From NCBI GenBank assembly GCA_963724325.1, contig CAVRUH010000001.1:416001-480000 (forward strand): DNA of 64,000 bases, read 5' to 3'. The translations under genes and the position numbers were made by a program. The notes beneath the pieces are model-generated. The model did no database searches. It was given only the letters and a program-made list of their open reading frames with translations, and was not told where the DNA came from. How positions within the stretch are numbered: the first letter of the stretch is position 1; each line of letters begins with the position of its first letter. This document shows, in pieces, positions 24,992-26,829 of this stretch. The stretch is from Waddliaceae bacterium (GTDB taxonomy: Bacteria > Chlamydiota > Chlamydiia > Chlamydiales > Waddliaceae).

Positions 24992-26817
24992 CCCCATCAA
25001 TACTCAATTGGCAAAATTTGTTTTGAGAAAATGTTTGATAGAAGTACAATCGGTAAATATTCTTCTCGAAACAAGGCTCAGAACATTGTCAAAATGCATC
25101 AAAGTCCAAAAAATTGTACTCGAATATCACCCTCAGAGGAATCAAAGAGCAAAATTAATCAAGGGCTTAGCGATATTGCTCAACAGCACAATATCAATTC
25201 GGTCATCCATCAATCAGGAGCTCCATCATGAAGAAAGCCGCAATATATGCCAGAGTCTCCTCACAGAAGCAAAAAGAAGATGAAACGATCGAAAGTCAAG
25301 AATTGGTTCTTCGAGAATTTGGACTCAAAGAAGGATATCAAATTCCAGAAACGTGGCTTTTTCTTGATAACGGTATAAGTGGTCAAAGTCTTCAAAGACC
25401 TGCTTTAGATGATTTACGAGATTTGATACGAACAGAGTCTGTCGACGCGATTTTGATCTATGCACCAGATAGGTTAGCCAGAAATTATCCTCATCAACTT
25501 ATTTTGTTAGATGAATTTCGACGATGTGGAGTGAAGGTTCTTTTCATTAGAAATGTTCCTCAAGGTGACACTCCTGAAGCAATAATGTTTACTCATTTTC
25601 AGGGGATTTTTGCTGAATATGAAAGAGCATTAATATTAGATCGATCTCGTCGAGGTACTATTCATAAAGCAAAAAGCGGAGATCCAGCTATTCTTCCTAA
25701 GCTACCATATGGCTATCAGAGGATAAAAAATGAACGTCAAACGGTGATTGAAATCGTTGAAACAGACGCGAATGTTGTAAGAAAAATATTTTATTTATAT
25801 GTTCATGAGAGGCTTTCATTAAATGGAATTTGTCGAAGGTTGAGCGAGGTCCAAATTAAAAGCCCAAAAGGAAATTCCTATTGGTTTCCAGCAACCATCT
25901 TAGGGATATTAAAAAATAAGGCTTATATAGGCACTGCAGCCTATGGTAAATCAGAAAAGTATGAGGGTATAGATAAAATAAGGCATTATAAAGGCTTAAG
26001 ACGGCTGAAGCCAAAAAATCCACGAAAAAAAACTAATGAAGACTCTTGGTACGAGATAAATATTCCAATTATAATTAGTGAAAGTGATTTTGAAACAGCA
26101 CAGGAATATATAAATAAAAATAAAGAATTAGCCTTAAGAAATACCAAAGAACCTTCCTTGCTTCAAGGATTAATCACGTGCGGCGAATGTGGTTGTCAAT
26201 TTTATAAAAGAATGAGAAGATATAAGGGAATAAGTAAAAATTATTATCATTGTCGAAGCCATTCGGATAATAAAATACCAAAATGTTCTAATGGATATAT
26301 ACAGCAGGATGAGCTCGATGATTTGGTCTATAATGAAATAATTCAAATGCTTCAAAATCCATTTATGTTGCAGGAAGAGTTTAAAAGAAGAGAAAAGGAA
26401 AGCGGAAATATCGAGGAAATCGAGAGGCAGGAAATTTCGATGAGAAAAGAATTAGAAAAGCTTATAAAAGAACGAGAGCGACTTTTAGATGCATATCAAA
26501 GTGGTTTATTAGATTTAACTTCTCTAAGTCAAAGAGCCCAGGGGTTAGAAAAAAGAAGAGGCGAACTTGAGAACGAGAAAAAGGAACGATTAAATTTAAA
26601 ACTTATGAAAGAAATAGGATCCGGTTGGGAGCATGCTTTTGAAAGTATTTTAGAAAGAGTTAAAAAATCGGCTCCAGATTTGCCATTCAATGAGAAGCAA
26701 AAACTAGTGCGTTTAATAGTTGAAAAAATTATCATAACCAAAGGCGAGGTAAAAATCATGCATTGCATATCACCGAAAATGCTTTATGAAAATTGCCAAT
26801 TGAGTAGTGATGGGGCA
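24992..26817 (+). mobile_element. Minimal serine-integrase mobile element (1826 bp) inserted in a REP-like repeat
   Basis: 23-bp terminal inverted repeats ccccatcaatactcaattggcaa (24992-25014) / ttgccaattgagtagtgatgggg (26793-26815), 22/23 match. CA at both junctions. Rejoined flanks equal the intact repeat at 26973-27037. Confidence 0.92.
25031..25231 (+). CDS. Small ORF upstream of the integrase (possible accessory protein, or the integrase C-terminal extension in the circular form)
   Basis: 66 aa. Stop overlaps the integrase start (ATGA). In frame with the integrase across the reconstructed attP. Confidence 0.45.
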   Translation: MFDRSTIGKYSSRNKAQNIVKMHQSPKNCTRISPSEESKSKINQGLSDIAQQHNINSVIHQSGAPS

Positions 26818-26829
26818 GGATACGAATGA
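25228..26829 (+). CDS. Large serine recombinase (integrase)
   Basis: YARVSS catalytic motif, DNGISG, RPAL, DRLAR, PYGY recombinase domain, Zn ribbon (CGECG...C...C), coiled coil, AGGAG RBS. Confidence 0.95.
   Translation: MKKAAIYARVSSQKQKEDETIESQELVLREFGLKEGYQIPETWLFLDNGISGQSLQRPALDDLRDLIRTESVDAILIYAPDRLARNYPHQLILLDEFRRCGVKVLFIRNVPQGDTPEAIMFTHFQGIFAEYERALILDRSRRGTIHKAKSGDPAILPKLPYGYQRIKNERQTVIEIVETDANVVRKIFYLYVHERLSLNGICRRLSEVQIKSPKGNSYWFPATILGILKNKAYIGTAAYGKSEKYEGIDKIRHYKGLRRLKPKNPRKKTNEDSWYEINIPIIISESDFETAQEYINKNKELALRNTKEPSLLQGLITCGECGCQFYKRMRRYKGISKNYYHCRSHSDNKIPKCSNGYIQQDELDDLVYNEIIQMLQNPFMLQEEFKRREKESGNIEEIERQEISMRKELEKLIKERERLLDAYQSGLLDLTSLSQRAQGLEKRRGELENEKKERLNLKLMKEIGSGWEHAFESILERVKKSAPDLPFNEKQKLVRLIVEKIIITKGEVKIMHCISPKMLYENCQLSSDGAGYE

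Follow-up and report, generated by a model that had tools for sequence, protein, structure and literature searches.

A mobile element in the 64,000-nt stretch of Waddliaceae DNA analysed here (the window) carries a recombinase gene, int, that appears to be completed only when the element is joined into a circle. By its anatomy the element is a minimal, insertion-sequence-like transposable element with a predicted large serine recombinase (LSR) as its sole enzyme. In the chromosome int ends in host sequence, and in the reconstructed circle it reads on into the left end of the element, where about 18 codons show the signature of translated coding sequence. This pattern supports a recombinase C-terminus that depends on the state of the element, and a directionality switch acting through that C-terminus is plausible. 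The explanation favoured overall, with a probability of roughly 45%, is that the tail-less chromosomal enzyme would excise the element together with the product of a small gene, orfX, and the tailed form made from the circle would integrate it. The conservation of the tail codons and the recognition of orfX as a conserved small gene are new or corrected points relative to an earlier sequence-only reading of the window.

LSRs act one way, and reversal requires a separate factor. How a transposon relying on a single LSR gene manages both to exit DNA and to insert again is a puzzle, to which a gene end rewritten by its own recombination would, if the reading is true, be a built-in answer. The element could sense its own state by having one recombinase tail when inserted and another, partly conserved, in the circle. 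For genome engineers this would amount to a natural form of direction control, drawn from an abundant family.

Anatomy of the element and its target repeat

The two ends of the element together form attP, a 23+2+23 palindrome whose right arm lies inside the last codons of int. The host half-repeats on either side (24954–24991 and 26814–26844) both match the intact copy at 26973–27037 exactly. Seven near-identical copies of the element are present in the genome, five of them identical and two with three differences in common, and all seven are inserted in one dispersed host repeat with the same left flank adjoining every copy. A count of junctions gave seven of the attL type and seven of the attR type against 123 empty target cores. 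Multiple identical copies, defined ends and empty sites were therefore all found, as for an insertion sequence or minimal transposon. Identical dinucleotides flank eight reconstructed elements whose ends form a palindrome, a sequence fit to a 2-bp crossover, by which the element would insert into the abundant host repeat. Excision as a circle, and translation of that circle, are steps that we infer; the 40-nt circle junction, built by script, had no occurrences in the assembly. Logan contigs of four sequencing runs likewise contained no circle junction and no go-back joint at the element ends, the one joint listed being in the host repeat; rare forms would not show up in such contigs.

Table 1. 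Coordinates of the element, its genes and the surrounding host repeat within the window
Feature	Position	Strand	Remark
Left half of host target repeat (attL host arm)	24954..24991	+	38 nt identical to 26973–27010
Mobile element	24992..26817	+	1826 bp with the CA crossover counted once; 3x608+2
Left terminal inverted repeat, one attP arm	24992..25014	+	23 nt, 96% (22/23) complementary to 26793–26815
Putative conserved C-terminal tail codons of recombinase, about 18	24992..25045	+	contiguous with int only in the circle
Full int read-on in circle	24992..25231	+	79 codons plus TGA overlapping the int ATG
Promoter-like site TTGAGA-16-TACAAT	25023..25050	+	10/12 consensus positions; consensus match only
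66-aa ORF	25031..25231	+	lies in the read-on frame; not conserved as a gene in its own right
orfX, conserved 65-aa gene, TTG start	25086..25283	+	56-nt overlap with int start; candidate directionality factor
Large serine recombinase int, inserted form, 533 aa	25228..26829	+	last 3 residues and stop are host sequence
Right terminal inverted repeat	26793..26815	+	within the last int codons
Crossover dinucleotide CA	26816..26817	+	int codon ends there; left-side CA at 24990–24991
Right half of host target repeat (attR host arm)	26818..26848	+	source of 3 int residues and the TGA stop
Intact, unoccupied target repeat copy (attB-like site)	26973..27037	+	from repeat comparison within the window

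The recombinase and its inserted-state end

Int consists of an N-terminal resolvase-type catalytic domain with conserved Arg and Ser residues (Resolvase, PF00239, E 5.5e-32, residues 4–152), coupled to the two DNA-binding domains of an LSR, DBD1 (Recombinase, PF07508) and DBD2 (Zn_ribbon_recom, PF13408) with an inserted coiled coil. Residues A8, R9, V10, S11 and S12 are near-invariant among 30 sequences, and a Shine-Dalgarno-like AGGAG lies upstream of the ATG at 25228. An AlphaFold2 model of the inserted form (pLDDT 79) places long helices (residues 360–497) between the zinc ribbon and a final hairpin (498–512) with a last strand at 507–512; residues 519–533 fall below 50 and are unstructured.

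The int gene has no stop codon of its own. The frame crosses the right att site with a codon boundary at 26817, and the inserted copy stops after GYE on host repeat sequence, just as the sequence-only reading had described for its 533-aa product. Across the seven copies the inserted tails are GYE (three copies), GYEG (two), and in one copy each 18 and 20 aa, such that 3–20 residues are host-encoded. Past the conserved end, tails vary in both length and sequence among the 120 homologues listed and the ORFs in fetched loci.

The reading frame of the reconstructed circle

Circle ORFs were obtained by scripted joining of the element ends. The window element yields a single ORF of 609 aa, in which 79 stop-free codons follow the junction and which ends at the TGA of the ATGA at 25228–25231, on its own start codon; all seven genomic copies give the same circle ORF. 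This ORF had been predicted earlier, together with the caveat that the in-frame junction had about a 1-in-3 chance of being coincidental. The prediction was borne out by the reconstruction, and the caveat does not apply, because the palindromic arms fix the frame relation across the junction and the codon boundary lies at the crossover in eight of eight elements. The ATGA closure in turn arises automatically whenever the element length is 2 mod 3 and A opens the second codon of int. Lengths are 2 mod 3 in six of the seven chlamydial lineages and vary mod 3 in a more distant clade.

The length of the open run is unusual. The corresponding off-frame within int (starting at codon position 3, as the read-on does relative to orfX) has a stop density of 0.08–0.10 per codon, with longest open runs of 36–62 codons. 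Among homologues the proposed conservation of frame continuity and closure held in part: the first ~18 codons are conserved, but full closure onto the int start was found in only three of seven chlamydial lineages (the window element and L017 via ATGA, L125/L126 via TAATG) and never in the distant clade. The read-on is shorter in L016, L022, L023 and L009 (64, 60, 42 and 20 codons) and runs for 15–34 codons in the distant clade. In L016, L022 and L023 it stops inside orfX, short of int; it gets at least to the start of the small ORF in all seven chlamydial lineages, with the L009 stop 1 nt before that ATG.

Under synonymous resampling of orfX, the probability of a fully open frame was 0.013, 0.035 and 0.009 for the three closing lineages (combined Fisher p 8e-4, or 5e-3 without the window element), statistics that are partly post hoc. 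Stop depletion in the 5’ untranslated part was not significant (p 0.33–0.36), and the evidence for depletion over the full run is modest (p about 0.005). Beyond read-on codon 18 no residue conservation was detected, and every difference between relatives changes a residue when read in this frame. No Pfam match above the cut-off was obtained for the 79-aa read-on or for OrfX, the sole hit being MLKL_N at E 0.055, well below threshold.

Conserved codons past the junction

Across 30 related elements, the codons beyond the palindrome are conserved as a protein would be. Read in the read-on frame they have a mean BLOSUM62 score of 1.47, compared with -0.29 and -0.41 for the two alternative frames, and comparison between the two clades gives 0.74 against -0.87 and -1.52. 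Nucleotide identity at codon positions 1, 2 and 3 is 0.49, 0.58 and 0.36, the third position being the least conserved. The codon switches include Lys AAA to Arg CGG or CGC, TTT to TTC, and Ser AGT to TCT. The encoded motif is alternating-hydrophobic and strand-like (KICFEKMFDRS here, NFxFERhhxYR in distant relatives), and a stop follows it directly in 7 of 23 distant elements. Because this protein-level conservation extends over ~18 codons, the comparison supports the view that they are translated and that the recombinase gene straddles attP. No natural ORF running into the motif was seen among the ORFs in fetched loci or, by eye, among the homologue tails listed.

Within the chlamydial clade alone the third-position signal is absent (0.53, 0.64 and 0.58). 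Part of the tail conservation in this clade could have a DNA-level cause, since a conserved promoter-like block overlaps the same codons. The position of that block is kept in relatives (aligned over five elements), although promoter-like sites in the region are no commoner than in shuffled sequence.

Automatic end calling did not work, or gave ambiguous results, at many distant loci. When ends were called automatically (on a TA centre), the motif lay out of frame in 5 of 26 distant loci, and its phase also differed in L093. The arm geometry of the family puts those distant motifs in frame, but the flanking dinucleotides then differ at one base. The 30-element comparison left out L048, L056 and L093, in which the motif pattern was not found, and L079 and L108 were dropped as their inverted repeats look false.

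A conserved small gene overlapping the start of int

The sequence-only reading had proposed that the inserted state yields the 533-aa recombinase plus a separate 66-aa protein, linked to int by the ATGA overlap and becoming part of Int once the circle forms. The change of the recombinase C-terminus stands, with the first ~18 junction codons conserved, and the separate small protein is not supported. In the window element the 66-aa ORF does have an ATG, an open frame and the ATGA overlap. Its ATG, however, falls inside the promoter-like site, ahead of the point where transcription probably begins, and is not conserved, being replaced by Ile in L017, with no Met at all in the frame of L022. No homologue was found in a collection of 5.8 billion proteins, where the copy from its own genome is not called either, and no Pfam family matches. 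Among relatives, residues change in the 66-aa frame while the overlapping orfX frame stays synonymous. We give a distinct 66-aa protein hardly any credence.

The other open frame (24972–25283), which had been raised earlier as a caveat, is real and is the frame of orfX. This gene is present in six lineages with aligned TTG, GTG or ATG starts, and a further protein, P0122, is 75% identical to OrfX. The distance from the left end of the element to the orfX start is 94, 94, 97, 106, 109 or 112 nt, in every case 1 mod 3. L125 and L126 show three differences, each silent in orfX and residue-altering in the read-on frame; between the window element and L016, the changed codons comprise 7 synonymous and 13 nonsynonymous in orfX as against 0 and 20 in the read-on.

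A model of the OrfX–Int complex reached an ipSAE of 0.61 (0.61, 0.63 and 0.55 in three runs), with 0.00 for the best of three controls. Of 157 solved complexes 116 attained this ipSAE mark, as did 2 of 215 mismatched pairs; the calibration is only rough for self-built alignments, and that of OrfX had just nine rows. At least 83% of contacts agreed between runs, and partner pLDDT was at least 60. The modelled interface joins Int residues 341–384 and 474–516 to OrfX residues 2–34, with Int 507–513 pairing with OrfX 8–15. OrfX is hence modelled onto the recombinase at the DBD2/coiled-coil junction, where recombination directionality factors (RDFs) bind, often by strand addition, according to PMC12286644. 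The same paper notes that in SCCmec recombinases extra C-terminal strands could block the RDF site.

A proposed state-dependent recombinase and its alternatives

From the anatomy, copies, frame, coding signals and complex model we infer the following activities. In the chromosome int would end in whatever the host repeat encodes, and this tail-less form would excise the element together with OrfX bound at the DBD2/coiled-coil junction. In the circle int would continue into the left end, the full-length gene existing only there. The circle-form tail would sit just past the edge strand with which OrfX is modelled to pair, and a tail in that place would favour integration. The run beyond codon 18 to ATGA would be a read-on that some lineages have kept open without conserving its residues; its importance may lie in ribosomes crossing the start of orfX and then beginning int anew at its ATG. 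A bolder version would make the element a self-contained topology sensor. The circle-only C-terminal strand would fold onto the DBD2 edge strand and displace OrfX, the same enzyme would excise when made from the chromosome and integrate when made from the circle, needing no outside regulator, and in several lineages the circle-long ORF would be tuned to silence orfX and restart int. This version we hold to be doubtful.

The whole arrangement might instead be a by-product, in which the attP arm overlaps the int 3’ end by chance, the tails are tolerated and meaningless in both states, tail conservation reflects a DNA-level constraint (an extended recombinase site together with an int/orfX promoter), and the open frame comes from chance and orfX codon structure. 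The free variation of inserted tails, the absence of residue conservation after codon 18, the spread of read-on lengths from 15 to 79 codons among relatives, and the promoter-like block over the conserved codons of the chlamydial elements, among which the third-position signal is absent, would all be expected on such an account. It is nonetheless unlikely, given that conservation tracks the read-on frame across clades of very different G+C, that third positions are freest, with switches between Lys and Arg and between Ser codon families and with stops right after the motif in seven elements, and that a period of three is not expected of a DNA site. Full openness of the frame would also be improbable in three lineages under synonymous resampling.

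Selection could also act on translation itself and not on the peptide. Ribosomes on round-circle transcripts would pass the orfX ribosome site and start, silence orfX, terminate at ATGA or TAATG and re-initiate at int, giving recombinase without OrfX in the circle only. Such a role would fit a read-on that reaches at least the small ORF start in every chlamydial lineage, stop depletion without residue conservation, stop–start overlap in three lineages, and a spacer before orfX that changes in 3-nt steps only. We regard it as improbable all the same: it requires transcription through a hairpin and U-rich run at the junction, int has its own Shine-Dalgarno-like site, three lineages stop within orfX and never reach int, the statistical evidence is modest and some of it was obtained post hoc, and nothing comparable exists in the distant clade. 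The hairpin invites a further reading. Joined junction RNA folds into a long hairpin of -26 to -45 kcal/mol in seven elements, followed on its 3’ side by a U run in L017 and U-rich sequence in the others, and might act as a transcription terminator there. In that case int messages from the circle would break off before any stop codon, the protein would be tagged for degradation, and the recombinase would be off after excision. However, both the coding signal and the stops that directly follow the motif are located past the hairpin, and ribosomes on its 5’ arm would be expected to oppose its formation, which makes this a very unlikely explanation.

Comparison with known systems

The literature searched, which had subscription journals outside its coverage, yielded no account of a gene for a serine recombinase that extends across attP.

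The circle of Tn4451 forms a promoter for tnpX. The present element is comparable to Tn4451/Tn4453 in that element state changes recombinase expression there, but those elements carry cargo, and what is known to arise at their junction is a promoter and not an ORF that crosses it. The presumed use of an LSR as transposase via a circular intermediate is shared with TnpX of Tn4451/Tn4453 and with the DUF4368-bearing clade of multi-targeting LSRs (PMC10083194). Unlike multi-targeting LSRs the present element is site-specific for one repeat and not relaxed. A TnpX/TndX-like multi-targeting LSR was rejected: DUF4368, which most members carry, gave no Pfam match at E <= 0.01, and all seven insertions are in one sequence.

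Mycobacteriophage BPs shows integration-dependent immunity, with attP inside the repressor gene 33 (PMC4557955). As in BPs, attP is placed towards the 3’ end of a gene, and the inserted and free proteins differ at the C-terminus; in BPs that difference acts as a state switch. BPs differs in that the gene encodes a repressor, recombination is left to a separate protein, and an ssrA-like degradation tag ends the longer free form (PMC4557955), whereas here the gene encodes the recombinase, a serine enzyme and the only enzyme of its 1.8-kb element. None of the endings observed is ssrA-like (the read-on tail ends in APS), and it is the inserted state that loses a C-terminal segment.

SSV-type (‘suicidal’) archaeal integrases likewise have the recombination site within the integrase ORF, so that integration splits the gene (PMC7253208, PMC8371274). 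These are tyrosine recombinases in which integration disrupts the body of the enzyme, whereas in the LSR described here only ~18 terminal residues would be removed, with the catalytic and DNA-binding domains intact. Membership of the SSV type was rejected: attP inside the ORF fits, but the enzyme is a serine recombinase.

The modelled position of OrfX is like that of phage LSR–RDF pairs, in which the small partner binds where DBD2 meets the coiled coil, often by adding a strand (PMC12286644), and engineered Int–RDF fusions indicate that C-terminal additions to an LSR can change direction (PMC5737554). In contrast to both, the small gene overlaps the int start in a 1.8-kb element, and the C-terminal addition would come from DNA topology. 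The IS607 family provides another insertion-sequence-sized element moved by a serine recombinase (PMC4058570), but its small enzyme with N-terminal DNA-binding and C-terminal catalytic parts does not match a 533-aa protein with an N-terminal catalytic domain, Recombinase and zinc-ribbon domains and a strict target, and membership was rejected.

Distribution of relatives

Among 8000 candidates examined, 2387 were relatives at E <= 1e-20. Within the same order, relatives were found in 8 of 401 genomes at E <= 1e-60, its own genome counted, and in 2 of 61 at E <= 1e-30. A pattern scan of metagenome contigs gave 599 matches, 594 of which encode a relative; it returned the distant clade only (33–47% identity), and the 80–90% relatives known as proteins were absent from it. 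No link is drawn between closure and copy number: there are six intact copies in G404 and one match each in the genomes of L016, L022 and L023, but several of those copies lie on 2–3-kb contigs that are possibly collapsed repeats.

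The element and its relatives

Sequence inspection and a repeat search revealed a host repeat interrupted by inserted DNA, with the dinucleotide CA adjoining both element ends. The product of int contains Resolvase, Recombinase and Zn_ribbon_recom domains (Pfam) and is therefore a large serine recombinase (LSR). Seven copies are present in the genome, five of them identical and two with three differences in common, and the host flanks are alike on both sides of all seven; the target core GATCGCAAGCGGCAGGAT is unoccupied at 123 further places genome-wide (G000, the source genome). 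The element is IS-sized, site-specific and probably active.

Features of the element and the interrupted host repeat (window positions)
Feature	Position	Remark
Left half of host repeat	24954-24991	exact match to intact copy 26973-27037
Inserted element	24992-26817	1826 bp
Terminal inverted repeats, 23 nt	24992-25014 and 26793-26815	22/23 complementary
Promoter-like site TTGAGA-16-TACAAT	25023-25050	consensus match only; 66-aa ORF starts inside
orfX	25086-25283	65 aa; 56-nt overlap with int
int	25228-26829	533 aa; only large gene of element (ORF listing and Pfam)
Right host match	26814-26844	exact match to intact copy 26973-27037; host right half from 26818, GGCA just before

The target repeat belongs to a large family (window 26888-26928 and 26973-27037; genome-wide in G000), and many of the 123 empty cores are arrayed in tandem (period ~88 to 164 nt), with inverted partners; the family may be REP-like or the remnant of another element. 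Three element copies, two direct and one inverted, fall within 5.7 kb (G000 C1:24026-29732), the second and third being the pair that departs from the other five by 3 shared differences. The AAA_14/DUF4143 ATPase ORF as listed (window 26991-28328) begins with an ATG of the host repeat, and at the inserted copy the equivalent repeat ATG opens frame 24972-25283 (103 aa); the true ATPase start probably lies further downstream.

Of 8000 candidates examined, 2387 proved homologous to the recombinase at E <= 1e-20, the best 120 of which were listed. Among the matches listed, most lie on 1.8-2.1-kb contigs and the proteins end in a conserved HCISP..ENCQL..DG followed by short unrelated tails. Relatives' DNA was taken from genome contigs, metagenome contigs and whole genomes, and element ends were set by inverted repeats together with matching flanking dinucleotides. 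This yielded seven chlamydial-type lineages and a distant clade (33-40% identity, ~2.2 kb, leader of ~590 nt) with 26 loci bearing inverted repeats and matching dinucleotides. Loci L079 and L108 were dropped, as their inverted repeats look false.

Reconstructed chlamydial-type lineages (identity, recombinase against the window; read-on, int frame continued past the junction of the joined circle)
Lineage	Length (bp)	Crossover	Identity	Read-on (codons)	Read-on ends	Remark
Window	1826	CA		79	ATGA on int start	
L016	1841	GT	57%	64	before int start	
L022	1853	GA	53%	60	before int start	
L017	1847	TG	49%	73	ATGA on int start	6 intact copies in own genome
L023	1859	GA	46%	42	before int start	
L009	1800	TC	43%	20	before int start	
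L125/L126	1874	CT	39-40%	79	TAA overlapping int ATG	

The L009 element (G056:C128, about 260-2274) lies inside another palindromic repeat with its own 27-nt inverted ends, so repeats are also targeted by the element family in another genome. The L017 genome (G404) holds a second lineage (L032 and L139-L141, G404:C53), with 59% identity in the first 170 residues, as a decayed copy carrying frameshifts and stops.

The recombinase frame across the junction

In the inserted window copy, the int frame passes through three host residues to a host TGA, and the host-encoded tails of the seven copies are GYE (three), GYEG (two), 18 aa (one) and 20 aa (one). Joining the ends by script produced a 609-aa ORF with 79 codons past the junction free of stops, closing at the TGA of ATGA (25228-25231); the sequence-only reading, which described a circle ORF ending on its own start codon, had the arithmetic right. 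That reading gave the in-frame junction about a 1-in-3 chance of being coincidental. It is not such an accident: the int codon boundary coincides with the end of the crossover dinucleotide, and does so in 8 of 8 reconstructed elements. With the right arm of the palindrome locked in register to the conserved final codons of int, and the left arm being the reverse complement of the right, the family keeps one frame relation from end to end of the junction. Read-on in the distant clade spans 15-34 codons. Going by the read-on lengths, the frame closes on the int start codon in three of the seven chlamydial lineages and nowhere in the distant clade. The stop on the int start codon follows automatically from a length of 2 mod 3 and a second int codon starting with A.

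A conserved tail encoded at the left end

Left ends were aligned codon by codon with the crossover as origin. Beyond the palindromic arm, chlamydial elements share the motif K/T-I/F-x-F-E-K-x-F-D-R/K-S and the distant clade N-F-x-F-E-R-h-h-x-Y-R. Over 30 elements (omitting L048, L056 and L093), codons beyond the palindrome had a mean BLOSUM62 of 1.47 when read in the read-on frame and of -0.29 and -0.41 in the alternative frames; nucleotide identity at read-on codon positions 1/2/3 was 0.49/0.58/0.36. Between the two clades the BLOSUM scores were 0.74 against -0.87 and -1.52. Codon exchanges occur at basic residues (AAA for CGG or CGC), Phe (TTT for TTC) and Ser (AGT for TCT), and a stop codon directly follows the motif in 7 of 23 distant elements. 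The tail is read as coding since neither a DNA-binding site nor a promoter would vary with three-base periodicity between G+C-rich and A+T-rich hosts. The chlamydial clade alone gives no third-position signal in the tail (0.53/0.64/0.58), and a promoter-like block overlaps the tail codons there. At 5 of the 26 distant loci the automatic end call (TA centre) places the motif out of frame, and the phase of one more, L093, also differs; under the family arm geometry the motif at those loci would fall in frame, at the cost of a one-base mismatch between the flanking dinucleotides. Comparison of the ends supports a coding tail: the left end would encode the last ~18 recombinase residues, making the gene whole only in the circle.

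From codon 18 onward no residue conservation was found in any frame. Matching off-frame sequence inside int contains 0.08-0.10 stops per codon, with longest open runs of 36-62 codons. The chance of openness was estimated with the OrfX protein fixed and synonymous codons resampled with int codon usage. The probability that the read-on frame is open to the int start was 0.013 for the window, 0.035 for L017 and 0.009 for L125, and that of running at least as far as the first stop actually present was 0.11 for L016, 0.15 for L022 and 0.70 for L023 (combined Fisher p 8e-4; 5e-3 without the window). Stop depletion in the untranslated stretch upstream of orfX was not significant (p 0.33-0.36). orfX begins 94, 94, 97, 106, 109 or 112 nt from the left end, always 1 mod 3, and length is 2 mod 3 in six of seven chlamydial lineages; distant-clade lengths showed no such constraint. 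These statistics, partly post hoc, argue moderately for a role of translation past the tail in some lineages. At the left junctions of L017, L019, L020 and L025, the last host base and the TG crossover form an ATG in the read-on frame, so inserted copies there could also translate this frame from the junction.

Relation to known systems

LSR transposons such as Tn4451 move via a circle, which in Tn4451 has a junction promoter. As published, attP lies within the 3' end of the BPs repressor gene, giving state-specific C-termini (PMC4557955), and within the integrase ORF of SSV-type tyrosine integrases (PMC7253208, PMC8371274). The present gene resembles the former in the position of attP and a C-terminus set by integration state, and the latter in having attP in the recombinase ORF, although its enzyme is an LSR. 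A serine recombinase gene spanning its own attP, or a one-enzyme element of that kind, was not found in the literature searched, which excluded subscription journals. Multi-targeting LSRs commonly carry DUF4368 (PMC10083194), whereas Int has no DUF4368 match (Pfam, E <= 0.01).

orfX is the conserved small gene

Three-frame translation of the leader placed a conserved small protein in the frame of ORF 24972-25283, not in that of the 66-aa ORF (25031-25231). The sequence-only reading had recorded the former as also open, which it is, and had taken the latter as a separate small ORF. The 66-aa ORF has no match in the protein collection, its start codon reads Ile in L017, and in L022 this frame lacks any Met; the collection contains the orfX frame of this genome and a relative 75% identical. 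The OrfX core resembles ..IK.Q.I.LEY.PQRNQ.AKLIKGL.I.L.D, and aligned starts are TTG at 25086 in the window, GTG in L016 and L022, and ATG in L017, L023, L124 and L125. All three differences between L125 and L126 fall on orfX wobble positions; they leave OrfX unchanged but alter the residues of the read-on frame. Between the window and L016, 17 of 33 differences are at orfX wobble positions; of the changed codons, orfX has 7 synonymous and 13 nonsynonymous, whereas all 20 of the read-on frame are nonsynonymous. Comparison therefore supports orfX as a gene. The promoter-like site lies within a block conserved in five elements.

In distant-clade leaders (L063, L089, L102, L104, L106, L115 and L029) a conserved ORF of ~110-130 aa replaces orfX within the 590 nt; its stretches ..S.RQAYRY.. 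and FTVKL..L..R.R....G..LSE.V.RAL are taken here to resemble helix-turn-helix and ribbon-helix-helix motifs.

Predicted OrfX-recombinase complex and junction RNA

A complex of Int 300-533 and OrfX, modelled from alignments of 30 and 9 rows respectively, gave an ipSAE of 0.61 (three runs 0.61, 0.63 and 0.55), the best of three controls being 0.00; among solved complexes 116 of 157 reach this ipSAE mark, among mismatched pairs 2 of 215, counts only rough for self-built alignments. At least 83% of contacts agreed between runs, with partner pLDDT of at least 60. The modelled interface joins Int 341-384 and 474-516 to OrfX 2-34; within it, Int 507-513 pairs with OrfX 8-15. An AF2 model of Int (mean pLDDT 79) has its final strand at 507-512, and 519-533 fall below pLDDT 50. 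As described in PMC12286644, the DBD2/coiled-coil junction is the common binding site of directionality factors that differ in fold, most of which add a strand to the DBD2 sheet, and extra C-terminal strands of SCCmec recombinases could block this site. The model suggests that OrfX binds Int at the directionality-factor site. The circle-only tail begins ~25 residues past the edge strand, its hydrophobic residues alternating as in a strand, and may compete with OrfX. Neither the homologue tails listed, nor the assembly, nor the ORFs of fetched loci contained the circle form as a contiguous natural sequence.

Tail-less Int with OrfX would carry out excision and full-length Int made from the circle integration; the long read-on would act, if at all, through ribosomes that cross the orfX start and re-initiate at int. 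Scripted folding of the joined-end RNA of seven elements gave a terminator-like stem of up to ~24 pairs (-26 to -45 kcal/mol) with a U-rich stretch after it, and this junction hairpin could limit read-round transcription.
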